Assembly (NCBI GenBank): GCA_000004695.1
Contig: CM000152.2
Span: 2,656,001-2,720,000 of the forward strand
Length of the DNA stretch: 64,000 bases
Direction: 5' to 3'
Origin: Dictyostelium discoideum
Taxonomy: Eukaryota
The translations under genes were made by a program, and so were the position numbers. The notes under the pieces are model-generated. The model saw only the letters and a list, made by a program, of their open reading frames with translations. It was not told the DNA's origin and ran no database searches. This document shows positions 1-47,219 of the stretch, piece after piece; the first letter of the stretch is position 1; each line of letters begins with the position of its first letter.

Positions 1-13
1 TTATTATTATTTT

Positions 14-1370
14 TTAAAGTTCAATTTTAGGTTCCCAAGTTGACAGATTCCAATCTTTCACTTTTGGGTGAGCGAATTGTTGTTTATATTTTGAAGTTCT
101 GAGAATAAAATTTTGAAATGGGAAATTTGTTAAAGGAGTATCAAATAGGTATAAATGAACTGTTGATTGTGGTATTTCAGTTATTTTTTGATTAAATCCA
201 TCTAATAAAGACAAATCAGTAACACCATTTGGTATTGAACCTTTTAATAATGGTTTTTTAATTGCACCAACAAATAGATGTGTAATTGATTGTGGTAGCA
301 TACCTTCTTTTAGTTGAACATTGAATCCATCAAGTAATACCAAATATTTAACCGATGTTGGAATTGAACCTATTTTAATTGTTTTAACACTTGGTGCAAT
401 CGCTAAATGAGTAGTACCATTTGGAATGATAGAATCATTTTTATAAATAAAACATTCTTTTCCTCCAGCTTTATATAAATAATAATTTATATTAATAACT
501 TCTATTAAAACAATCTAATATTATAATTCTATTAAAATACTATAGTATTTTTTTAAAATATTTACCAATAACTCTTTTTGGATCCTTTACATTTGTAATA
601 GAGAGAGAATTGCTAATTTCAAATATTTCTTTAATTGATTCTTTAACTTGTTCACTATTATTTACAAAATTTACATTTTTATATTGATCCATTAGTTCAT
701 TGATTTTATTTTCATTTTGATTATCTTTTATTAATAGTCGTGATTGACAACAATGTTTTAATATTTCAATATGTTGATAACTATTATTATCATTAATGAT
801 TTGATCAATATTTATTTGATTTATTGTATTTTTATATTTATTTGTAATTAAATTAATATTATTTGAATAATCATGTACAATGGTTGAAATGTTTGTATTG
901 ATATCTTTATTTTCATCATAGAGTGTTACTAATTGTTTGATTTTATCAATTTCGATGATTGGTAATAATTTGGGGAGTTCTTTAAATACTTCTGTGATTG
1001 TATTTACATTTTCAGTGTGTTTATCTTCTAATGATTTAAATAAATTATTTGATTCATTTAATAACTCATTATTGATACCTATTTGTTTATCTAAATTTTG
1101 AAGGTGATTATTTTTAAATTCTTCAAAGATTTCTTTTGAATTCTCTACATCTATACGACCAAATTTATGACCATTATGATCTAAAAGAATACATTCATTA
1201 CATACTACATCCTGTTATAATTGTAATCATACAAAAATGAGTGACAATTACTTTTTATTTAAAGGGTGGAAACATGTTAAAATAATTACCTTACATGTTG
1301 CACAAATCATTTTGATTTTGTGCTCTTTATGTATTGCACATTTGTTATCATATTTACTTATACTATCCAT
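14..1370 (-). CDS. B-box zinc finger / FNIP-repeat protein, paralog 1 (3 exons, about 393 aa)
   Basis: Minus-strand ATG at 1370. Exon 1 (1290..1370) encodes MDSISKYDNKCAIHKEHKIKMICATCK, the start of a B-box Zn finger. A GTAATT donor follows. Exon 2 (566..1211) begins DVVCNECILLDHNGHKF (rest of the B-box). Exon 3 (14..468) carries FNIP repeats (GSIPxxV..LLDGFNQ..IPQS), with a TAA stop at 14..16. Introns are 1212..1289 and 469..565 with GT..AG ends. Seven paralogous copies follow downstream. Confidence 0.75.
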
Positions 1371-2211
1371 CGTGTGAAAGAATTTTTATGAAAAATTAGG
1401 GAAAAAAAAAAAATTTTGAAAAAAAAAAAAATATTATACTATTTTTTTTTTTTTTAAAAATTTAAGTCAAAATTTGAGTTGACAAAATTTAAGTCAATTA
1501 TTTTTTTATTTTTAACATATTTTTCATAAAAAAAAAAAAAATAAAATAAAAACAAGGGATAGGCATTAATTTTTTACTCTTTTTTTAAAAAAAATAAAAT
1601 TAAGTTTTCAATTAGTTTTCAAATAATTTTTATTCACTTCCCACAATCCCATTATTATTATTATATATTTGATACCTTTTTTAAAAGTAAAATATTAAAA
1701 TAATTTTTTTTTTTCAATTTTTTCAATTTTTTTTTTTTTTTTTCATTTTCATTTTAAAGTAGGCAATATAATATTAGTGAATGAATATATAAATGAATAA
1801 ATAAACGAATAAATAAATGAATAAATAAATGAATAAATAGACAAATAAACAAATAAACAATAAATAATAATTAAAAAACATCAAGTAGCTATTTCCAACA
1901 GGTTATCAAGTGGATTTATTCAATTTAGTTTAAATGGTAATTTTCTACTCATGACGGTAGTGATTGTAGAAATGGTGTTCAACAATTATCATTTGAAAAG
2001 GGTTTCTTTTTTAGAGTAGATAGTTCTTTATTTGAATTTTAAACCAAATTTAGTTAAACAATAAAATAAAATTTTTTTTTTTTTTTTCAAAACATATTTA
2101 CAAAGTTTTAGATTTATTAAAACTAGTTTTATTTTATTTATTTATTTTTTTTTTTTTTTTTTTCAATCAAGATTGTAGTTTTATTTTATTATCTTTTTTT
2201 ATTGTTTTTAG

Positions 2212-3580
2212 TTATTATTATTATTAAGATTTGATTGAGAAGGTAATCTTTTTGGTAAAATTTTAGATGGAGTTGATGGTGCAGTATTTTGATCAATTTT
2301 AGTCCAAATTTCTTTAGCAGAACCACCAGAAACTTTATTAGTTTGAGTAGTGGTGGTTGAAGAAGAAGATGATGATGTAACAATGGTTTAGCAGTTACAA
2401 CACTTTCAAGAGTTGGTAATTTTGGAGATGGTGTAGTTGATAATGTTGAATTATCAATAGTTGTGGCCAATAATGATTCTCTTGATGATTCTTTAACTAA
2501 TGATGGTACAATAATTGATACCATCATTAGTTTAAGCACCACTTATTGTACCATCACTAATAAGTTCATCATCATCCATTGGTATATTAATAATATTAAC
2601 TGGTAATGGTAATGGCGAATCTAATTGTTGTTGTTGTGGTGGTGGTGATGTTGTTGTTTTTGTTGTTGTTGAAGAAGATGAAGAAGATGAAGAAGATGAT
2701 CTTAATTGCAGTGGTTGTAGTTGATTTATTACATTCTTCAATTGGTTCCTCTGGAATTGCATGCTTCAGTTTCTTGTTTAGTTAATTCTTTAGTTGGTTT
2801 AATTTCTTGTAAAATTTGACTAGCCGTTGTTACATTATGTTGATTTAAATCTTGTGATGAAGATAAAGAATTCTCTGCATTAACTTTTGATTGTAAAATA
2901 TCAAATGGTGATAATACTTCAGGTGCTTCATCAATCGATTTTGGATGATTGTTACTATTATGTTGTTGTTGTTGTGATGATGATGATATTGATAATGATG
3001 AAGATGAAGGTGAAGATGAAGCTGATTGATGATTTTCTCTTTCTTTACCAAGGAAATCAGTTGATCAATTCAAAGAAGAATTTAATTTTGGCATCATATT
3101 GCACCGACTGATGGTTTGCGTTGAATAAAACTTGTTGATCTGGTGATGATGGTATACCCCTAATTGTTGGGGATTATCCAACTGATACACTTGTAGTAGT
3201 ATTACCACCAATATTATTACTACTAGTATTTAATGGAGTTGGAATTGGTGTTAATGCACTACTTAATGATGGTGAAGATTGAGCTGATGATATCACATTA
3301 TTATTATTATTTATTTTTTATTATTGATAACAACTGGAGTAACACTTAGAATTGTTTTGAAAGAAACCTTCACTATCTAATTTTGCTGCTTTTGTTCTTT
3401 CATCTTTTGAAATTAATACCCAATTAAGTATTTTAATTTTGGTAATTCATTAATAACAAATAATATAAACTCTTCACATTTCTTTTAAATTAAATTATTT
3501 TCAAATGATAAATATTCTGAAGTTTTAGATTTCTTTAATGTTTGTTTGATAATTTGTTGTCCTAAAATTGAAAATATGAA
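2212..3580 (-). pseudogene. Degenerate S/T/Q-rich low-complexity ORF cluster (frame-disrupted gene or pseudogene)
   Basis: Minus-strand ORFs 2189..2542 and 2532..2762 and neighbouring frames encode Ser/Thr/Gln/Pro-rich low-complexity peptide. Coding potential is spread over all three frames with several internal stops, and no clean GT-AG exon model could be built by eye. Confidence 0.3.
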
Positions 3581-3583
3581 AAA

Positions 3584-3615
<32 letters not shown>

Positions 3616-3659
3616 ATAATAATAATTAACCATTAAAATAGGAATTAATAATTAAAAAC

Positions 3660-3815
3660 AAAAAAATAATAAACTTTATTTGTTTTTTTGAAAAAAAAAA
3701 AAATTTAAGGTCAGTGAAATTAAATAAAAAAATTCAATGCTACTGTAGTGAAATTAAATAGTAAAATTCACTACGCTGGGCAGTGAAATTTTATTGAAAA
3801 TTCCCTACAACAATA
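3660..3815 (+). repeat. Solo terminal repeat of the Tdd-4-like DNA transposon (about 156 bp)
   Basis: Near-identical to 31975..32134 and the inverse of 27533..27690. It contains the subterminal palindromic motifs ggtcagtgaaatt and cactacgctactgtagtgaaatt and ends in ccctacaaca. No transposon body lies on either side. Confidence 0.7.
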
Positions 3816-4229
3816 TCTTTATTTTCATCATAGAGTGTTACTAATTGTTTGATTTTATCAATTTCAATGATTTGTAATAATTTGGAGAGTTCTTTAAATA
3901 CTTCTGTGATTGTGTTTACATTTTCAGTATGTTTATCTTCTAATGGTTTAAATAAATTAATTGATTCATTTAATAACTCAAAGATTTCTTTTGAATTCTC
4001 TACACCAATACGATCAAATTTATGGCCATTATGATCTAAAAGAATACATTCTACACATACTACTACCTATTATATTTATAATAATCATACAAAAATGAGT
4101 AAGGATCTTTTATTATTTAAAGAGGTGGATATTTGTTACGATAATTACCTTACATGTTGCACAAATCATTTTAATATCGTGCTCTTTATGTATAGCACAT
4201 TTGTTATCATATTTATTTATATTATTCAT
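3816..4229 (-). pseudogene. B-box/FNIP paralog 2: 5' fragment only, truncated at the solo transposon repeat
   Basis: It has the exon-1 B-box start (ATG at 4229), the intron, and the first ~300 nt of exon 2 with a ~60-nt internal deletion relative to paralog 1. The sequence stops abruptly at 3816, right against the ccctacaaca terminus of the repeat. Confidence 0.7.
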
Positions 4230-4365
4230 TGTGTGAGAATTATTAAGAAAAAATAATGGAAAAAAAAAAAAAATTTAGAAAAAAAAAGTTTCTGGATTTT
4301 CAATTTAAATCAAAAAAAAAAAAAAACCCAGTTGCGATTTTAAAATTATTTTATTATTTTTTAAT

Positions 4366-4401
<36 letters not shown>

Positions 4402-4726
4402 CTTAAAAATTTAGTTATTTGACTGGAATAATTTATAATCTTAAATTTTATATTGGTTTTTTTTTTTTTATTTTTTTTTTTTTATTTTTTTAAAAACTTA
4501 TTTGTGATAATTTTTTAAAAGATTTTTTTATATAAAATATTGCCTATCTTTATTCCCAAAAAAAAAAAAAATTATAAAAAAATAAATGATAAATTATTAA
4601 ATAATAAAAATAGAAATTTTGAGAAAAAAAAAAAATAAAATAAAAAAAATGGTGAAAATGACCTAATAGATTTATTTAATGATGTTTTGTTATTATTTTA
4701 TAATTCAACTTTTTTTAAAAACTCAC

Positions 4727-5510
4727 CTAAAGTTCAAGTTTAGTCTCCCAAACACCATCCCAATTATTCACATTTGGATAAGTGAGTTGTTGTTTATATT
4801 TTGTGCTTCTGTATATGGTTTTGGAATATGGGAATTTTGTTAAAGGAGTATCAAAAAGTATTAATTGATTAACTGATTGTGGTATTTCAGTTATTTCTTG
4901 ATTAAATCCATCAAATAAAAGTAAATAATAAACACCATTTGGTATTGAACCTTTTAATAATGGTTTTTTAATTGCACCAACCAATAGAGATAATTGACTG
5001 TGGTAGCATACCTTCTGTTAGTTCAACATTGAATCCATCAAGTAATAGCAAAGCTTGAACCGATGTTGGAATTGAACCTGTTTTAATTGTTTTAGTACTT
5101 GGTGCAATCGCTACATGAGTAGTACCATTTAGAACCATAGAATCCTCTTTATAAATAAAATATTCAGCTCCTCCAGCTTAAATAAAAAATTTAATATTAA
5201 TAACCTCCATTAAAACAATCTAATATCATTATAATTCTATTAAAATAAAAATGAATATTTACAAATAACTCTTTTTGGATCCTTTACATTTGTAATATAG
5301 GGAGAATAGGTAATTTCAAATATTTCTTTAATTGATTCTTTAACTTGTTCACAATTATTTACAATATTTACATTTTTATATTGATTCATTAATTCATTGA
5401 TTTTATTTTCATTTTGATTATCTTTTAATAATAATTTTGATTGAGAACAATGTTTTAATATTTCAATATGTTGATCGTTATTATTATTAATGATTTTATC
5501 AATTTTTAAT
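4727..5510 (-). pseudogene. B-box/FNIP paralog 3: 3' fragment with frameshift
   Basis: ORF 4727..4984 encodes FNIP repeats, and the upstream exon-3 and exon-2 homologs are present. The reading frame breaks around 4985..5170. The copy ends at about 5510 without a B-box exon. Confidence 0.65.
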
Positions 5511-14349: not shown

Positions 14350-15723
14350 TTAAAATTCAATTTTAGGCTCCCAATAATAAGCAGTATCCCAAGTATACAC
14401 CCTTGGGTGAGTGATTTGTTGTTTATATTTTGTGCTTCTGAATATGTTTTTAGAATATGGGAATTTTGTTAAAGGAGTGTCAAAAAGTAATAATTCTTTA
14501 ACTGATTGTGGTATTTCACTTATTGCTTGATTAAATCCATCTAAAAAAAACAAATTTAAAACACCATTTGGTATTGAACTTTTTAATAATGGTTTTCTAA
14601 TTGCACCTACAAAAAGATGTGTAATTGATTGTGGTAGCATGCCTTCTGTTAGTTTAACATTGAATCCATCAAGTAATATCACACATTTAACTGATGTTGG
14701 AATTGAACCTATTTTAACTGTTTTAACACTTGGTGCAATCGCTACATGAGTTGTACCATTTGGAATGATAGAATCATCTTTATAAATAAAACATTCATTT
14801 CCACCAGCTTTATATAAATAATAATTTAATATTAATAAAATAATTAAAACAATCTAATATTATTATAATTTTATTAAAATACTTAATGATATTTACCAGT
14901 AACTCTTTTTGGGTCCTTTACATTTGTAATAGAGAGAGAATTGCTAATTTCGAATATTTCTTTAATTGATTCTTTAACTTGTTCACAATTATTTACAATA
15001 TTTACATTTTTATATTGATTTATTAATTCTTGGATTTTATTTTCATTTTGATTATCTTTTATTAACAGTCGTGATTGATAACAATGTTTTAATATTTCAA
15101 TATGTTGATAGTTATTATTATTTTTATTATTATTAATGATTTGATCAATATTTATATGATTTATTGTATTTTTATATTTATTTGTAATTAAATTAATATT
15201 ATTTAAATTATCATGTATAGTGGTTGAAATGTTTGTATTGATATCTTTATTTTCATCATAGAGTGTTACTAATTGTTTGATTTTATCAATTTCAATGATT
15301 TGTAATAATTTGGAGAGTTCTTTAAATACTTCTGTGATTGTATTTACATTTTCAGTGTGTTTATCTTCTAATGATTTAAATAAATTATTTGATTCATTTA
15401 ATAACTCATTATTGATATCAATTTGTTTATCTAAATTTTGAATGTGATTATTTTTAAATTCTTCAAAGATTGTTTTTGAATTCTCTGCATTTATAAAATC
15501 AAATCTATGACCATTATGATCTGAAACAATACATCCATCACATACTACTACCTTGAAATAATAAAAATAGAGACAATGAGAATTACTTTTTGTTTTAACA
15601 AGTGGTAAATGTTTTTAAATAATAAAAAACTATAACTACCTTACATGTTGAACAAACTAATCTAATATCAAAATCTTTATGCAATGCACATTTATTATCA
15701 TATTTATTAATTAGAGTAGTCAT
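14350..15723 (-). CDS. B-box zinc finger / FNIP-repeat protein, paralog 7 (3 exons)
   Basis: ATG at 15723 (MTTLINKYDNKCALHKDFDIRLVCSTCK). FNIP exon at 14350..14682 and upstream, with conserved intron positions. Confidence 0.7.
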
Positions 15724-15812
15724 TTGGTTTGGAAAAAATATAAATATTTAGCAATTAAAATTTTATTAATTTGTGAAATTTTCAAAAAAAAAAAAAATAA
15801 AAAAAAAATAAA

Positions 15813-15849
<37 letters not shown>

Positions 15850-15899
15850 AAATAAAAATAAAATTTTGAACCAAAAAAGGATTTAAATTCATTTTAATT

Positions 15900-15935
<36 letters not shown>

Positions 15936-16369
15936 GAATGGATTGATTCTTTTATTTCCCTACTAGAAAAAGTGATCAATTTTAATTTTTTTTTTCTTTT
16001 TTATTTAAATAATAGTAAAAAAAAAAATATATTTCCAAAATTCTAACAAATTTAAAACAATCACAAAAAAATAATAATAAGTTCACTGCAAATCTCATTA
16101 TTCCAAAAAAAATATCTTTTCAAAATAGAAAAAAAAAAAAATAAAAATCCAATTCCAGAAATTTCTGTGAAAATGAAAAAAAAAAAAAATTAGTGATTTT
16201 TTTGATTGAAAAAAAAATAATTAGTGATTTTGTATGTTGAAAAAAAAACAAAAAAAACAAAAGAAAAAAATAAAGTGAAAATAAATAAATAATTTGGCTA
16301 AAGAAAACCGTAATTTTTTTAAGATTGCATATTGTACAATTTATTATAAGTTTTTTTTTTTTTTTTTTT

Positions 16370-17661
16370 TTACATTTCAATTTGAGAGTAACCATTTGAA
16401 TTCCATAACACTTCATTAAAACCATTGAGATCTTGTTTACAAGAAGGAGTTTTATAAACTCTAACTGATTTTATTAAAGTTTGAGGGATTTTAAAAGAAG
16501 TATCACCTAAATAGATTTGAGTAACATTTGGTGGTATTTCAGAGATTTCTTGATTGAATCCATCTAATAAAAATAAAAATGAAACACTTTGTGGTATTGA
16601 TTTCTTTATCAATGGTTTTCTAATGGCACCAATATGTAACCATTGGACGGAATTTGGTAATAAACCTTCAGTTAATTGAAGATTAAAGCCATTTAATAAT
16701 GCAATTCTTTGAATAGTTGCAGGAATTGAACCAATTGTTAAATTTTTAATACTTGGTCCTAATGCTAAATAAAGTGTGCCATTTGGTATAACACAACCAT
16801 CTTTATAAATGAAATATTCACCACCACCCACTTTTTTGTTTTTTTAATTATAATTTAAAATAATTAGGAATTAGTTTTAAAGGATTTTAAAAAATTAAAA
16901 AATTAAAATAAATTAAAATATTATATTTACATTTTACTCTTTTTGGATCTTTATAAGTTGCAGAACTTAATTTAATTTTAAAAGTATCTTTAATTGAATT
17001 CTTTACAAAATCCATTGAATTTTCAATTGTAACTTTATTAAATTCATTTAATAAATCAATATTTTTATTTTCAGTATTCTTTTCTTTTACCAACATTTGA
17101 GATTGATGACAATGTTTTAATAATTCTAAATGTTGATGATTATTTCCTTTAATATTTTGATCATTATTAAAAATTTGTTGGATATTAAAATTATTAATTG
17201 TATCCTTGTATTTATTTGTAATTAAATGAGCATTCTTTGAATTATTTTCAAGTTTTTTTGAAATTTTTGAATGAGTTTCTTTATTTTCATCATAATGACT
17301 GACCAAATGTTTAATGGTATCCTTTTCAACTGAATCCAAAATTGTATGTAATTGTTTAAATTCATTGGAAATTGTATTGACATTGTGAATATGTTCCTCT
17401 TCAAGTTCATTAAAAATCTCATTTGATTTATTTAATAATTCTTTATCACCATCCAAACATTTAATTAAAAATTGAAAATTATTATTTTTAAATTCTTGAA
17501 AAATTTGATTACAATTTTCAGAGGTAATAAAATCAATTGAATGGCTACGATGATGATTTTTTGAAACAATACAATAATCACAAACTGGAACTCTACAATC
17601 ACTACAAATAAATCTATAATCATAATCATTATGTAGTGTACATTTATTATCAAATTTACCT

Positions 17662-17666
<5 letters not shown>
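16370..17666 (-). CDS. B-box zinc finger / FNIP-repeat protein, paralog 8 (diverged; B-box region not split by an intron)
   Basis: ORF 16887..17666 begins MAGKFDNKCTLHNDYDYRFICSDCRVPVCDYCIVSKNHH, a B-box read without an intron. ORF 16370..16831 carries FNIP repeats, with an intron between them at about 16832..16905. A T60 tract lies directly upstream of the ATG. Confidence 0.65.
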
Positions 17667-17715
<49 letters not shown>

Positions 17716-18731
17716 TTAAAACAATATTTTTTTTTTTTTTGTTTTTTGTTTTTTGTTGAGATGTCAGTTGTTTTGGATGATCAAAATAAAAAAAAGAAAA
17801 TAAAAAAAAAAAAAAAAAGTAAATCAATTTTTTTTTTTTTTTTAAAAAAGTAAAAAATAAAAAAAAAAAAAAAAAAAAAAAAGTTTTTAAATATATTCGA
17901 TCAGTGGATAGTTTTCACATAAAGAAGCTGTGCAACCCAACATAGAAAAAATGGGGTATTAGTTTAATTTATTTGGGCACCAAAACACTTTTTTTTTAAA
18001 AAAAAAAATAAAAACTCTGCTGAATATCAATGTGATTTTTTCTTTTTTTTTAATTTTGATTTTTTGATTTTTTTTTAATTTTTTTATTATTTTTTTTTTT
18101 TTTTTTCTGATATTCTGGAAAAACTTAAATTTCGACTTTTAAAATCATTATTAATTTCATTGCTTCCTTCTATTATTTTTTTTAATTATTTTTATTTTTA
18201 TTTTTTTTTTATAAATGTGGTTTTTAAAAAATCTCAGATTAATCTTGACGTAAGGATATTTTTTTTATTGTGTTATAGAAGTTTTTTTTTTTTTTTTTAT
18301 ATTATAATACCAACCCATATATTAATTATTCACACGTGTGCTTTGAGTTTTTAAAAATATCAAAGAATAAATTTAAATTTCTAAAGAAATTTTATTAAAA
18401 TCCCAACCTGATATTTAAAATATAAAAAAAAAAAAAAAATTTATGTAATTTCACATTAATTTTCAAAATGTGGATTATTCTACCAAATAATTTTGGCAAA
18501 ACAGACTATATTAAAAAAAATATTTTTTTTTTTTTTTTTTTTTCTCCAAGTAAATTATTAAAAACATATGATTTCAGAATATTATTTTGATTAAAAGTTT
18601 TAATAATATTAATAAGAATAATAATGATTAACAATAAAACAATAATAATTAAAATAATAATTTATTTATTTAGTTTTATATATTTTAGAGTTTTCGTTCG
18701 AAACTTTTCGTTATTTTTCGACCGAGAACTC

Positions 18732-19507: not shown

Positions 19508-19536
19508 GCGACTTTTGGTCTCCCTGATTAAAAAGC

Positions 19537-19608
19537 TCCCCATTCGGGAATCGAACCCGAGGTACCAGTGTGAAAGACTAGAGTGTTACCGACTACACCA
19601 ATGAGGAT
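19537..19608 (-). tRNA. tRNA-Glu (anticodon UUC)
   Basis: The reverse complement TCCTCATTGGTGTAGTCGGTAACACTCTAGTCTTTCACACTGGTACCTCGGGTTCGATTCCCGAATGGGGAG folds as a cloverleaf: 7-bp acceptor stem with one G-U, anticodon loop CTTTCAC, T-loop GGTTCGATTCC. Confidence 0.85.
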
Positions 19609-19655
19609 TTGGTTTGAATTTTGATTTTTTTATATAATAAAATTTCACGTTTTTT

Positions 19656-19719
19656 GGAAAAAAACAAACAACAACAACAATCTCTTTTTTTGATTATTTC
19701 ATTTTTCATATAAAAAAGA

Positions 19720-19754
<35 letters not shown>

Positions 19755-21460
19755 GGAACCAAGTTAATTAGAAAATTTCCAGATTTTTAACTTTTTAAAG
19801 AAAAATAAAAAAGATAGAAAGAAAATAAAATGAAAATCACAAACAACACCACAAATATTAAGCAACACAAATGCCTACAAAAAATAAGCGAAATTGTGGA
19901 TAAAACTCAATTAAAAAAAAAACAATTCAAATACGTCATAAACATCAATCACGAACCAGACGATAAAATAAAAAAAGATTTAGAAAAAAGTTTGGACAAA
20001 AAAGATGTTTTAATCAAAAGTAATAATACATTCAAAATTCTCACAGACAGTATTAGTACAGTAATCTATTTTGTAAATATGTTTGATGCAGAATTAAAAG
20101 GACAATTTATAACCACTATAAGACCAAAAAATATGTATACAGATTTTGATTGGTATAAATCACTCACAGAAATAGAATGGGTAATAGAAAATGAAGGATG
20201 TAAACTAATTAAATCAGAAATTAAAGGCGAAACTCTAATTATCAAAACAGTGAAAAGAGTCGTAGAAGAATTTGACACTATCATTGAACTAGACAATCTA
20301 ACATTAATTGGACACTCCAACAAAGGATGGAGAGATCAAACCTCATTACCAGAAAATCAAGAAGAAAACAAAAATAAAAAACAATCAGATGAACAACAAC
20401 CACAATCTACATCAGAACAAATACCAAAACAAGGAAAAAGAACAATCATTATCCCACCAATCACATCCTCATCTAATGATAAAACATTTATGGCCCTAGA
20501 TGATACAGCTCAAAAGGTAATAGAAGCATCACTAGAAAACGTAGATGAACTAACAAGAATAGAGAATGAGATCAATACACAATCGATAAACAATCAAGAA
20601 ATTAAAACAAAATCAGAAAAACCTATCGAACCACCATCTCCATACAATACACCAATAAAACAACACGGCGAAACAAAGGGACTAACAACGGAAGAAAAAC
20701 TTAGAGAGGCAAATGATATCTTCGACTTCACCAGCCCAAACACTGATGCAATAAGAAAAATAGAATTCCCACTTTCAATCCCTTCAAATCAATGGTTCTT
20801 CTCCTCTCCAATAAAACATATCATGAGTTTCAGCCCAACCTATGGTACACCATCGAAAATTATCGATTCACCAAGTAAATTGTTAAACACACCAAAAAAG
20901 AAACAACAAGACAAAACAAACAAGACCAACAAAACACCAGTCAAACCAAAATTGGGTGAATATGGACAAAAAAGCATAAAAACAAAAATGGATGAAGATA
21001 TAGACAACTTCAACAAGGAAATTCTAAAACAAATCAATAAATCAAAAAACCCCACAAACACACAAGACCAACAACACAACGAACAAAGTAAAGATCAGTT
21101 AGAAGACAAAATAAACCAGAAACTTCAAAAGGTAGATAAAAATCTACCCCAAATAAAACTATAAAGAAAAACACAATAAGAATAGGTGTTTGGAACGTCC
21201 AAGGATCCAACACCATCCAATCTGCCAGCATAATAAACACCGTTTTAGACAACAACAAGCTGGACGCAGCACTTCTAACTGAAACAAATATAAAAACAAA
21301 TAAAATTTACTCAATAAATCAACAATATAAAAACAAAATAACACACCACGCACCAATTGATAAAACAGGACAAGGGGTGTCACAAATCATCATCAACACC
21401 CGCAATAGAACTTCCTAAACATCTCAAAAAATACAATAATTCACTCAGTACTTTCTATAA

Positions 21461-21520
<60 letters not shown>

Positions 21521-21843
21521 CAAGTTAATCAGAAAAATAAAAAAGATAGAAAGAAAATAAAAGGAAAATCACAAACAACACCACAAATATTAAGCAACAC
21601 AAATGCCTACAAAAAATAAGCGAAATTGTGGATAAAACTCAATTAAAAAAAAAACAATTCAAATACGTCATAAACATCAATCACGAACCAGACGATAAAA
21701 TAAAAAAAGATTTAGAAAAAAGTTTGGACAAAAAAGATGTTTTAATCAAAAAGACCCTGTAAAAAAAAAAAAAAAAATAAAATGAGATCTAGCATCTCAA
21801 GGAGAAGCAAATAATAATTGCGTTATCCAATTCAAAAAAAAAA
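19656..21843 (+). mobile_element. TRE5-A-like non-LTR retrotransposon complex: several 5' fragments each ending in poly(A)
   Basis: Flanked by the direct duplication aaatttcacgtttttt (19640..19655 and 21844..21859). The body starts 48 bp upstream of the tRNA-Glu 5' end, with the 5' end facing the tRNA. Segments: 19656..19740; 19741..21517 (5' UTR, ORF1, start of ORF2, then A50); 21518..21775 (a second copy of the 5' UTR plus ORF1 start, then poly(A)); 21776..21843. Confidence 0.65.
19830..21164 (+). CDS. TRE5-like ORF1 protein (444 aa); start of the ORF2 endonuclease follows at 21165..21420
   Basis: A long ORF inside the element. A downstream ORF (IGVWNVQGSNTIQS...ALLTETN) has the hallmark of an APE-type endonuclease N-terminus. 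The first 50 codons recur in the tandem partial copy at 21565..21745. Confidence 0.55.
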   Translation: MKITNNTTNIKQHKCLQKISEIVDKTQLKKKQFKYVININHEPDDKIKKDLEKSLDKKDVLIKSNNTFKILTDSISTVIYFVNMFDAELKGQFITTIRPKNMYTDFDWYKSLTEIEWVIENEGCKLIKSEIKGETLIIKTVKRVVEEFDTIIELDNLTLIGHSNKGWRDQTSLPENQEENKNKKQSDEQQPQSTSEQIPKQGKRTIIIPPITSSSNDKTFMALDDTAQKVIEASLENVDELTRIENEINTQSINNQEIKTKSEKPIEPPSPYNTPIKQHGETKGLTTEEKLREANDIFDFTSPNTDAIRKIEFPLSIPSNQWFFSSPIKHIMSFSPTYGTPSKIIDSPSKLLNTPKKKQQDKTNKTNKTPVKPKLGEYGQKSIKTKMDEDIDNFNKEILKQINKSKNPTNTQDQQHNEQSKDQLEDKINQKLQKVDKNLPQIKL

Positions 21844-22077
21844 AAATTTCACGTTTTTTCGAATTAAATAAATTATAAAATTTCAAAATTTTTTCCAGAT
21901 TTTTTAATATTCAATTTTTCCCCATTGGAATCATTAAAAATAATGAAAAATATGTATTATTAAACGAAAATGTAACATTTTAAATGTATATTTGTTTAAA
22001 TAAAAAAATTATTTCGGTTCAAAAAAAAAAAAAAAAATTAAAAATAAAAAAAAAAAAAAAAGTCGTTCGTTTTTTAA

Positions 22078-22218: not shown

Positions 22219-22501
22219 ATGGAATCTGAAAATAAAAATAATAATAAAAAAGTTAAAGAAGAATCTAAAGTTAAAGTTAAATTTATAACTAATGATGCAA
22301 ATATTAGAGTTACAGATACACCAATTGCTGTACCAGTTCGTTTAGGTCGTCTTGGTTTATCAGAAGTAATTCATCATTTAAGAGAAGAAGAAAACGAAAC
22401 ATCAAAACCATTCGATTTCCTTATTAATGGTAAATTTATTAGAACAACTTTAGATAAACATATTAAAAATGCAAATTTAAGTGAAGTAAGTTATAATTAT
22501 T

Positions 22502-22536
<35 letters not shown>

Positions 22537-23731
22537 TTATTATTAATATTATTAATAATATTATTTACTAATTTTTTTTTTTTATTTTTTTTTTTTTAAA
22601 AAAAAGGAACAAATTATTACAATTGAATATTTAGAAGCAATTACAGAACCAAAAAGAGAAAAAGAATGTCAACATGATGATTGGGTTAGTTGTGTTGATG
22701 GTAGTAATTTTGGATTAGTAGTTAGTGGATCATATGATTTAGGTGTTAGAGTTTGGGGATATGATGGTGAACTTATTTCAACTGGTACTGGTCATTTAGC
22801 AGGTGTAAAAAGTGTTTGTTGGATTAGTGATAAAAACGCTGATAATCTTAGTTTTGTATCAGCATCAATGGATAAAACATTACGTGTTTGGAATTTCAAT
22901 AAATCACAATCTGAAATCAAAGCATTGGCATGCTTAAAAGAGCATACTGGTACAATTGAATCTGTTTACGTTTCACCAGATTCATCACGTATTGTATCGG
23001 CTTCAATGGATTCAACAATTAAATTATGGAGTATTAAAGACATACCAAATCAACATGCAACCACTTCAAGCTCCATTGAAAAGAGTAATAGTAAAAAACG
23101 TAGATTAGCAAACAACACCAATAATGAAACAGCAGCCGTCGACCAACAATCAGAGATCATTCATAATATAACGGAGTCATTGGCATCGGTAACCGTACCA
23201 AACAGTCAAGGTGTTACAGTGGTCAATTGGACAACCCAATTCCAAATGTTGTCAGGTTCAATGGATTCAAAAATTAGATTATGGGATGTTAGTACATTGG
23301 TTGCAAATGATACAATCCCTACACCTGCTCCATTAACCGATTTGGATTATTCAATGGAATCTGGTTTAATTGTAACTGCACATAAAGATAGAATCGTTAG
23401 AATTTGGGATCCAAGATCATCCGATGAAACTAAATCTCAAACTCAATCTTTAATCTCTCATAAAACTTGGGTAACAAGTGTAAATTGGAATCCATCTTCA
23501 AAATATCATTGTTGTTCTACCTCTCATGATGGTACCGTCAAATATTGGGATATCCGTACAAAGATTCCATTATACACTATTGATACTTTAGAGAAATCAA
23601 AAGATAAAGTTTTATCATCATCTTTCATTTCAAATAAAAATAAAAATATTAATGATTATTCAATTGTTTCTGGTGGTACTGATTCAAAATTAAGAATTCA
23701 TTATAATGATAAACAAGAACAACAACAATAA
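22219..23731 (+). CDS. wdr12: Ribosome biogenesis protein WDR12/Ytm1 homolog (NLE domain plus WD40 repeats; 2 exons, about 463 aa)
   Basis: Exon 1 22219..22485 encodes the Notchless-like NLE domain (KVKFITNDANIRVTDTPIAVPVRLGRLGLSEVIHHL...). A GTAAGT donor and AT-rich intron follow. Exon 2 22607..23731 encodes WD repeats (GHLAGVKSVCW, LRVWNF, TIKLWS, IRLWDV, VRIWDPRS, GTVKYWDIR). Confidence 0.8.
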
Positions 23732-44524: not shown

Positions 44525-44597
44525 AAAAAGAACTTGCTCGATGCAGGGATCGAACCTGCGACCGTGGCGTTATTAGCACCACGCTCTGCCGACTGAG
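44525..44597 (-). tRNA. tRNA-Ile (anticodon AAU)
   Basis: The reverse complement GCTCGATTAGCTCAGTCGGCAGAGCGTGGTGCTAATAACGCCACGGTCGCAGGTTCGATCCCTGCATCGAGCA has a perfect 7-bp acceptor stem, D-loop AGCTCAGTCGG, anticodon loop CTAATAA and T-loop GGTTCGATCC. Confidence 0.85.
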
Positions 44598-44611
44598 CTA
44601 ATCGAGCTTTT

Positions 44612-44989
44612 TATATTTTTCTGTAATAAAGTTACTCTATAAAATTAATAGATATTAAATATGCATATTACATTACTAATTATAGTTGACACACATTTAA
44701 ATAATATAATAATAATACTGTCAACTCATTATAAATAATATAAATACTAAAGAATAATTTTATTAACAATATTGAATATTATAAATATAAACTAATATTA
44801 AATAAAGATAACAAAGTATTATTCAATTATATAATTATTAATTATATATATTTATAAAGCTAACAAGCTTTATTACATTTGGCGACATCGTCTTTCAAAA
44901 AAAAAAAAAAAATATATATACTATAAATATAAAGTTATCAAATTATTCAATCAATTAAAATTGTACATTAGATTAAATTTAATTTAATA

Positions 44990-45059
<70 letters not shown>

Positions 45060-46335
45060 GAATAATAATGAAAACATAATTTTTTCGGGCGATGGAAAAG
45101 GTTTATCATTTCGTAAATTCAAACACTTACTCTTACTAATTCATGGCGAGGAAATATCGAAAGCTGATATTATTAGAAAACTAAGAAACAATGCATTGGA
45201 ATATGCCGCAACATTGGATACAAACTTAACAGCAATGGAGATAATTGAAGATCTTAAAGATGCTTTTGATATTGGTGATAGTGATGATTTAACAGAATTA
45301 ACAAAGTTGGGAGAATATAAATACAATACATTAGATATATTAATTGGTAAATTTCTATCAAAATGTTCAGCAGTTGATATTTCAGAAAAGTTTAAAATAC
45401 AATTGTTTTATTCAGCTGTTGGCACTGAATTGGGTATTGAAATTACAAAATGTGCACCAAAATCATTAAAAAGAGCAATAGATATTGCAAAGTCTTGTGA
45501 AGATGGTTCAATTCGTATCAAAGGTAGATCAATGTACACTGGTCAATTAGTTGCAAAGACGTTGCAAGAATTTGGTAATCAAAGATATCTAGGTTCGGGT
45601 TCTGGTTATTCTTCAACATCCCCTCAATATGTTACATCTCAAAACGAACAACAATCAATTGAATCTGAAGAAATTTCAACACCAATTTTTAAAAATCAAT
45701 ATTATAATCGATCACCACAAATGTCACCACAATCATCCCCTTATAAAGCACCACAAAATCAAGTAAATTCAATCACAAAATTTTGTAAATATTGCAAAAA
45801 GAAAGGTCATGTAATTCAAGAGTGTTGGTCAAAAGATAAAAATAATAATAACAATTACAATAATAGAACTAATTCAATTACAATGGTCAATAATAGTACA
45901 ATTAATTCAATTGGAATAGATAGTATGAATGCAGCTTTATTAATAAATAATAAAAATGTTAGAGGTTTGATTGATACTGGTTCATCACTTACTATTGTTT
46001 GGGAAAGTATTGCTAAAAAGTTAAAATTAAAGATTGAAAATAAACAATATTCTGTTAAATCAGCATCAAATAATGAAATCAAAATCATTGGAATAAGTAA
46101 CACAACAATTAAATTAGGTAAAGCATTGGCTAGAGTTAAAGTTAATGTTGTTAAAGATAATGATACATCAATTGATTGTATATTTGGCATTGATACAATA
46201 ATTGGATTAAATTTAGTCATTGATTTTAAAGAAATGATCATTAAGAATCTTGAATTCAATGTTGGTACCAAATTAATATCTAAAGAAACCCAACCATGTA
46301 TACAAACTATATTTAAAACAGTATCTGATTATTCA

Positions 46336-46366
<31 letters not shown>

Positions 46367-47219
46367 CATCAAAATCAGAATTATTAACAGATACTGATCA
46401 TTTAATTGAAAATTTTAATTCTCATCATATACTATCAATCAAATCGTGTCCAACTATTGAAGAACAACTACCAATAGATTACGATATTCCAGAATTCTTA
46501 TTCCAAGAACCAATAGATTCACCAATAACATCAAATTTACCATTAAAATCAATATCATTAAATCAAACAGAGAATTCAATAATTAAATCACAAATAACCT
46601 CAATTCAACCATTAATAAGAAATCCATGTACAAATTTATCAAGATTAGATTTTGCTCATAATTTCGCCCAAATTGTAAATAATAACTTCAAACGTCCTTG
46701 TCTCATTAAGGATAATCTTGGTAAAGACCAATTATCACAAATTAATAAAAAAGTTTCTCGTTCAAATATTCAAGTAGGAGATTATGTCTATTTACAATCC
46801 ACTGTTGGTCCAGTAAAGCTCAATAAATCTTGGGAAGGTCTTTTCAAAGTACATGAGAGAGTTAGCGATTTAAAATTCAAATTAGTATTGGATAATATTA
46901 AAAATCATGATGTGTTTTATATTAAAAGATTGAAAAATTTTTTTCAACTAAAAGGGGGGGATATGTAATAAAGTTACTCTATAAAATTAATAGATATTAA
47001 ATATGCATATTACATTACTAATTATAGTTGACACACATTTAAATAATATAATAATAATACTGTCAACTCATTATAAATAATATAAATACTAAAGAATAAT
47101 TTTATTAACAATATTGAATATTATAAATATAAACTAATATTAAATAAAGATAACAAAGTATTATTCAATTATATAATTATTAATTATATATATTTATAAA
47201 GCTAACAAGCTTTATTACA
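44612..47219 (+). mobile_element. DGLT-A-like LTR retroelement, internally deleted (LTR, gag-protease, LTR), 14 bp upstream of tRNA-Ile
   Basis: Direct LTRs 44612..44877 and 46964..47219 (~260 bp, TGTAATAAAG...CTTTATTACA, i.e. TG...CA with inverted termini). A primer-binding-site-like TGGCGACATCGTC lies 2 nt after the 5' LTR. Flanking TTTC on both sides is a candidate 4-bp target-site duplication. The position 13-33 bp upstream of a tRNA gene and the LTR size fit DGLT-A. Confidence 0.6.
45058..46968 (+). CDS. Gag-protease polyprotein (636 aa) with CCHC zinc knuckle and aspartic protease; no RT or integrase present
   Basis: CKYCKKKGHVIQECWSK (CX2CX4HX4C) and protease LIDTGSSLTIV...IFGIDTI. 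The stop codon overlaps the start of the 3' LTR. Confidence 0.7.

Follow-up and report, generated by a model that had tools for sequence, protein, structure and literature searches.

What produced the composite insert upstream of a glutamate tRNA gene in this stretch of the Dictyostelium discoideum genome? The stretch, called the window here, comprises 64,000 nucleotides (contig CM000152.2, positions 2,656,001 to 2,720,000, forward strand), and the insert occupies 2188 bp of it (19656-21843), upstream of tRNA-Glu(UUC). A preliminary description recognized a TRE5-A-like retrotransposon and read the insert as several poly(A)-tailed 5' fragments joined in one complex integration, through aberrant templates or template switching. 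We conclude that it is almost certainly a single, ordinary insertion of TRE5-A.2, a non-autonomous derivative of the D. discoideum non-long terminal repeat (non-LTR) retrotransposon TRE5-A.1. TRE5-A.1 was formerly called DRE.

Several features invite the idea that fragments were stitched together here. Four A-tailed segments are present within one duplicated target; they are delimited by runs of 28 (19723-19750), 56 (21463-21518) and 17 A residues (21761-21777) and by the terminal tail (21834-21843). Two of the segments share the 5' untranslated region (UTR) and the start of open reading frame 1 (ORF1), in the form of a 221-bp direct repeat with one mismatch (19799-20019 and 21531-21751). The longest segment runs, much as had been described, through ORF1 and about 83 codons into the endonuclease region of ORF2 before it jumps to the last 63 bp of that frame. 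The deletion junction lies between 21400 and 21401 (CAACACC[C]/GCAATAG), shows microhomology of 1 nt and puts the two parts of ORF2 out of frame with each other. Template switching is also a known property of non-LTR reverse transcriptases.

The same composite, however, occurs at nine other sites. Looking up the exact ORF1 protein led to nine loci (L001-L009) in another D. discoideum assembly, GCA_054883475.1; exact-protein look-ups with two AX4 ORF1 proteins (P0001 and P0002) and with two raw neighbouring ORFs gave no record. In BLASTN alignments with eight of the nine loci, positions 2-2188 of the window element are covered at 98.2-98.8% identity; with the ninth, positions 70-2188 are. When all ten copies were aligned with MAFFT, there was no variation at any junction, the ORF2 deletion junction being the same in 10 of 10 TRE5-A.2 copies; only the lengths of the A-runs and a few substitutions vary. 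Three features are private to the window copy: the first base, a T>G at 21563, which makes AGG of the ORF1 ATG copied in the 3' B-module, and the longer A-run between ORF2 and B, which at 56 nt is the longest among the ten. The nine 3' flanks are all different, and every copy closes with CCAATTC and an A-run. In six loci a tRNA gene (for His, Val-UAC, Ser, Val-AAC, Ala or Gly) was located upstream of the element, and the six copies with a 5' end that could be placed (L001, L004, L005, L006, L007 and L009) each have a target-site duplication of their own, different in each case and 14-16 bp long.

The nine copies and the window copy each go back to a separate insertion of one element form that propagates. 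That the others are segmental duplications of the window locus is excluded by the differences in flanks and target-site duplications. Because independent insertions share their junctions, the composite layout already existed in the RNA template and was not made here. A locus-specific event cannot yield ten identical sets of junctions, which makes it extremely improbable that aberrant templates or template switching during this integration assembled the insert. We had sought identical junctions elsewhere, as the preliminary description advised, and with their presence in all nine other copies the complex event falls.

Poly(A) at the ends of 5'-proximal fragments had been taken as a sign of aberrance, but the A-runs and the 3' repeat are also found in full-length TRE5-A.1. 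In the full-length copy at L003 (13-5439), ORF1 is followed by a 1148-codon ORF2 frame that matches RVT_1 (2.9e-33), with weak sub-threshold matches to Exo_endo_phos (residues 14-191) and zf-RVT. A truncated A unit and an A-run precede the B-module, and an A-run of ~40 nt stands directly past the ORF2 stop. The copy finishes with its 3' B-module, which is complete at 292 bp and has the ATG, and a C-module of ~135 bp with an internal A-run; the A unit of this copy measures 199 bp. The truncated A unit and A-run ahead of the B-module are likewise present in the eight TRE5-A.2 copies that reach that region, and L008 is 5'-truncated inside the truncated unit. Since the full-length copy has the same A-runs, all four "tails" of the insert are standard internal features of TRE5-A.

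The window element is collinear with L003 in the blocks listed in Table 1, and window positions 19723-20040 match the 3' B-module of L003 (4975-5294) at 98.4%. Relative to L003, the window element lacks positions 1764-4896, about 3.13 kb of ORF2, and about 37 nt near the start of the 3' B-module. Also absent are ~70 bp at the B/C junction, consisting of GTAATAATACAATTCAAAATTCGAAAC, an A-run of 22 and GTAAACTAACCCCTCTTTTAG; this count depends on the length of the internal A-run, and 82-87 nt of the C-module are left.

The ORF2 and B/C deletions are those that define TRE5-A.2. TRE5-A has the structure A-B-ORF1/ORF2-B-C, in which a ~200-bp A-module serves as the promoter, a 290-bp B-module contains the beginning of ORF1 and has a duplicate in the 3' UTR, and a C-module of 134-137 bp stands at the end; in TRE5-A.2, the non-autonomous form AB-ORF1-BC, a large part of ORF2 is deleted and 72 bp are missing from BC, so that 87 bp of the C-module remain (PMC3159450). 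The insert has this order of modules, with a 5' B-module of 290 bp. It retains ORF1 in front of a large ORF2 deletion, and its B/C deletion of ~70 bp corresponds to the published 72 bp. The four segments are a truncated A-module, a B-module with ORF1 and the ORF2 remnant, a 3' B-module and a C-module, and are therefore published modules rather than fragments. Of the complete ~200-bp A-module, the plus-strand promoter, only the first ~66 nt of the A unit (19657-19722, GAAAAAAACAAAC...AAAAAAGACTT) and the 28-nt A-run are present. A Pfam search of ORF1 and of the 88-aa ORF2 remnant alone gave no match, and the remnant was assigned to the endonuclease from the weak Exo_endo_phos match in the full ORF2 frame and from the literature. 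The AX4 matches to ORF1 carry the database name "hypothetical protein", none being labelled TRE5-A ORF1 for direct alignment.

Table 1. Features of the insert and its target (window positions, except where element positions are given)
Feature	Position	Strand	Remarks
tRNA-Glu (anticodon UUC), integration target	19535-19607	-	ARAGORN; 5' end at 19607; same gene at empty sites L010-L013
Left target-site duplication copy, AAATTTCACGTTTTTT	19640-19655	+	exact 16-mer; 17 bp counting the A at 19639; once at empty site L011
Element 5' end: extra G (19656), A-unit start and A-run	19656-19750	+	matches the L001 A unit (199 bp) over its first 92 nt at 94.6%
5' B-module, 290 bp	19751-20040	+	rest of 5' UTR and first 70 ORF1 codons
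ORF1, intact, 444 aa (TRE5-A ORF1 protein)	19830-21164	+	99% to D. discoideum AX4 proteins; exact protein at the 9 listed loci
5' ORF2 remnant, ~83 codons	21152-21400	+	N-terminal part of the endonuclease region, WNVQGS and LTETN motifs; collinear with L003 1514-1763
Last 63 bp of ORF2, then 56-nt A-run	21401-21518	+	out of frame with the remnant; stop TAA 21462-21464; corresponds to L003 from 4897 onward
3' B-module, TRE5-A.2 form	21519-21751	+	lacks about 8 and 29 nt near its start, as in all TRE5-A.2 copies
C-module remnant	21752-21833	+	B/C deletion junction 21751/21752; internal A17 21761-21777; 3'-terminal 54-nt hairpin 21780-21833
Terminal oligo(A) tail, 10 A	21834-21843	+	up to one more A ambiguous with the duplication
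Right target-site duplication copy, AAATTTCACGTTTTTT	21844-21859	+	exact 16-mer; once at empty site L011
Collinear block 1	element 3-1746		L003 13-1763
Collinear block 2	element 1746-2096		L003 4897-5272
Collinear block 3	element 2106-2188		L003 5356-5439

Another possible explanation is that the insert belongs to a different family, TRE5-B or TRE5-C, given that insertion about 50 bp upstream of tRNA genes is common to all TRE5 families (PMC3159450). Individual residues were used to examine family identity. For TRE5-A, the literature names isoleucine-10 of ORF1 (the I10* mutant) and, counted from the 3' end of the C-module, C38, A35, C26 and T15; the 3' hairpin of this module is needed for retrotransposition and holds C38/A35 in stem I and C26/T15 in stem III (PMC3159450). 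The window element has Ile at ORF1 residue 10, and T15, C26, A35 and C38 are all present at the published positions. Its last 54 nt are predicted to fold with a minimum free energy of -11.3 kcal/mol (z = -3.1 compared to shuffles), with all four C-module positions in stems. Both the ORF1 residue and the C-module positions thus match TRE5-A.1, and between TRE5-A and TRE5-C the C-module differs by about 22%. Moreover, TRE5-B and TRE5-C have no 3' B-module and TRE5-B has no C-module (PMC3159450), while the window element has both. We give membership in either of these families practically no chance.

The position of the insert also agrees with a TRE5-A insertion. The element reads on the plus strand and the tRNA gene on the minus strand, which turns the element's 5' end toward the tRNA, and 48 bp (19608-19655) separate the two. 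TRE5-A integrates 47+/-3 bp upstream of tRNA genes in a strict 5'-to-5' orientation (PMC5391098). The distance of 48 bp and the orientation, which the preliminary description had reported correctly, both conform to this rule. On either side lies AAATTTCACGTTTTTT, a target-site duplication of 16-17 bp, since one further A is ambiguous with the element tail. With tagged TRE5-A, duplications were variable in length (10-16 bp) and extra 5' nucleotides were often present (PMC9012585); the duplication observed here is at the top of that range, and the ten-copy alignment reveals an extra G at the 5' junction of the window copy (19656). We checked whether the 16-mer could be a chance repeat. Its exact copies at 19640-19655 and 21844-21859 are the only two in the 64-kb window, and the empty site has one.

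The empty site was found in orthologous loci from four other assemblies (L010-L013), which we reached via the neighbouring gene (exons 22219-22485 and 22604-23728), which encodes the AX4 WDR12 protein. The flanks of L011 (GCA_054883475.1) are 99.3-99.7% identical to those of the window, with the same tRNA-Glu(UUC). Where the window has 19640-21859, L011 (7521-7700) reads from the left flank through a single AAATTTCACGTTTTTT into the right flank, with no element. The single copy at L011 shows that the pair in the window is a true target-site duplication and that the insertion is polymorphic. L010, L012 and L013, which come from more divergent isolates, are likewise empty at this site.

The empty site also bears on whether successive TRE5-A insertions at one tRNA gene could have built a tandem pile-up of truncated copies. 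Tandem or nested copies do exist at other tRNA genes, for example at L002, L003 and L008. At this locus, however, there are no internal target-site duplications, only the single flanking pair, and L011 differs from the window by exactly the element plus one 16-mer. The architecture also equals the unit found at other loci. A pile-up is therefore hardly conceivable, and the earlier view that one duplication means one integration event holds. A search of the 64-kb window outside the insert did not find further pieces of TRE5-A. Overall, the preliminary description was right about TRE5-A, the distance, the orientation and the single event, and wrong about a complex, one-off integration.

To judge from the sequences compared, the insertion appears recent as well as polymorphic, because it is absent from a near-identical strain and is set apart from the other copies by essentially a single private substitution. 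We take GCA_054883475.1 to be, most likely, the assembly of AX2-214 in bioRxiv 10.1101/2025.08.01.668227, as it is the only near-identical chromosome-level genome in that set. If so, the insertion postdates the split of AX2 from AX3/AX4, which would fit both its near-identity to the remaining copies and the fact that TRE5-A is known to be active in laboratory strains (PMC3159450). A filled and an empty site in near-identical, laboratory-type genomes make this a clean, datable case of recent TRE5-A activity. TRE5-A.2 is mobilised in trans by the ORF2 protein of TRE5-A.1 (PMC3159450, PMC5391098), and the near-identical copies at independent sites, together with the empty-site polymorphism, are consistent with such mobilisation.

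Some points speak against identifying the insert as an ordinary TRE5-A.2. The family assignment is based on features quoted in later papers and on genomic copies, both full-length and TRE5-A.2. The interiors of repeats in an older reference assembly could have been shaped by consensus assembly. Also, the eight other copies that reach the A region contain 1-21 full 199-bp A units, and the window copy contains none.

If assembly had shaped the locus, the insert or its interior could be an artefact, a repeat consensus placed at a tRNA gene. In favour of this, the window copy hardly departs from the family consensus, and a near-identical strain does not have it. Against it, the insert is bracketed by a local sequence, otherwise unique, that is precisely duplicated over 16-17 bp, its 5' G is untemplated, and one substitution and the A-run lengths are private to it. 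Such features are hallmarks of real retrotransposition, and TRE5-A is active in laboratory strains (PMC3159450). We consider an artefact very unlikely.

As for the A units, the window copy is regarded as 5'-shortened because the other copies carry 1-21 full units. Truncation at the 5' end is commonly seen in non-LTR insertions and leaves the assignment to the family untouched. Without a complete A-module promoter, the window copy may be poorly transcribed, though its ORF1 and 3' hairpin are intact. It starts precisely at the last A unit and the others start 1-21 units earlier, which hints that transcription can start at any A repeat. If true, this would explain the varying number of A-modules. 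At the 5' ends of TRE5-A.2 copies in the long-read assembly, the A-modules form long tandem arrays, with 21 full 199-bp units in L006 (1633-5814) and 8 each in L001 (4226-5818) and L007 (4222-5814). Each of these arrays finishes with the same truncated unit and A-run.

For an ordinary TRE5-A.2 insertion, the course of integration can be proposed from the published TRE5-A pathway; the anatomy is what was observed at this locus. A source TRE5-A.2 would have been transcribed, with the composite layout already in the RNA. The TRE5-A.2 ORF1 protein would then bind this RNA and contact TFIIIB at the tRNA gene. The ORF2 protein, with its endonuclease and reverse transcriptase, would be supplied in trans by a TRE5-A.1 copy and would recognise the C-module hairpin. 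A nick about 48 bp upstream of tRNA-Glu would allow the RNA to be copied by target-primed reverse transcription. Finally, a staggered cut of the second strand would give the 16-17-bp duplication, and one untemplated G would be added at the 5' junction.

The mechanism put forward in the preliminary description may apply to the birth of the family instead of to this locus. Throughout the family, a truncated A unit is followed by an A-run and B, and the ORF2 stop is followed by an A-run, B, a further A-run and C. This arrangement could be what is left of a template switch in an ancestor, or of read-through from one tandem copy into the next at a single tRNA gene, within the D. discoideum lineage; we offer this tentatively and regard it as a possibility on the doubtful side. 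A TRE5-A relative, 83% identical over ORF1 and ORF2, is found in the sister species Dictyostelium cf. discoideum (L014, 8366-13260). In it, the ORF2 stop is followed by an A17 run, CCTGGCAA and then directly C-like sequence, and a search of this one sister-species relative for a 3' B-module found none. Going by this comparison, the duplication of B may be specific to the D. discoideum lineage. The 5' region of the relative is unrelated, and it is GC-rich.

Short derivatives without ORFs were also seen, at L008 (8009-8528) and L006 (915-1423). Each is made up of a truncated A unit, a B-module and a C-module, which is what recombination of the 5' with the 3' B-module of one element would be expected to give. 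The one at L008 keeps ~51 nt between its B and C matches, which suggests a B/C junction of the full-length type.

A 13-mer, TTTCCAGATTTTT, occurs in the 5' B-module (19776-19788) and again in the native flank, 33 bp beyond the insertion (21892-21904). These are its only two occurrences in the window, compared to 0.04 expected by chance. Capture of flank sequence by the element was considered and rejected; the empty site has the flank copy too, so that the element did not bring it, and we treat the match as probably a coincidence. Apart from B-modules and this flank, the word does not occur in 254 kb.

Other repeats and genes of the window lie apart from the insert. An LTR retrotransposon remnant (44622-47219) has two 256-bp LTRs (44622-44877 and 46964-47219) that are 100% identical and have the termini TGTAATAAAG...CTTTATTACA. 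It is located 14 bp upstream of tRNA-Ile(AAU) (44535-44607, minus strand), with TTTC flanking both sides. Its single ORF (45058-46968, 636 aa) encodes an aspartyl protease domain and weakly matches an integrase-type SH3; a reverse transcriptase is absent. The remnant looks like an internally deleted element of the DGLT-A type. A related solo LTR stands 13 bp upstream of tRNA-Glu(CUC) in L006 (446-628). Just downstream of tRNA-Glu(UUC), toward lower coordinates (about 15000-18500), are tandemly duplicated genes for zf-B_box/FNIP-repeat proteins, the arrangement of which varies between isolates (compare L011 233-5722).

The element and its form were already known, and the locus is a textbook TRE5-A.2. 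Its importance hardly extends past correct annotation, in which it should not appear as an unusual retrotransposition product. The comparison also shows how internal A-runs in a modular non-LTR element can lead astray an interpretation that uses only the sequence.

Among known systems, TRE5-B and TRE5-C resemble the insert in their target, about 50 bp upstream of tRNA genes, and TRE5-C also in a C-module-like 3' end. Neither of them has a 3' B-module, and in TRE5-B the 3' end is different and ORF1 is only 25% identical to that of TRE5-A (PMC3159450). The autonomous TRE5-A.1, AB-ORF1/ORF2-BC and about 5.7 kb long, is much closer. It shares with the insert the 5' region, ORF1, the first 83 ORF2 codons, the last 63 bp of ORF2, the A-runs at the module borders, the 3' B-module and the 3' end of the C-module, with 98% identity over the shared parts. 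The window element, in contrast, is without most of the endonuclease, the reverse transcriptase and the zinc finger. Due to the loss of these 3.13 kb of ORF2, it depends on ORF2 protein supplied in trans.

The insert agrees with TRE5-A.2 in module order, intact 444-aa ORF1, large ORF2 deletion, ~72-bp B/C deletion and about 87 bp of C-module with the hairpin. It also agrees in its distance of 48 bp from the tRNA gene, its 5' end toward the tRNA, a duplication of a kind that varies in length, and 98-99% identity to nine copies. The window copy departs from the others in beginning at the last, truncated A unit, in the private T>G that kills the copied ATG of the 3' B-module, and in having the longest A-run between ORF2 and B. 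Outside Dictyostelium, mammalian HAL1 is comparable. HAL1 is an internally deleted LINE in which ORF1 and the 3' recognition sequence are retained, and full-length relatives supply the ORF2 protein that mobilises it. It belongs to an unrelated lineage and does not target tRNA genes, so that the likeness is one of logic only.

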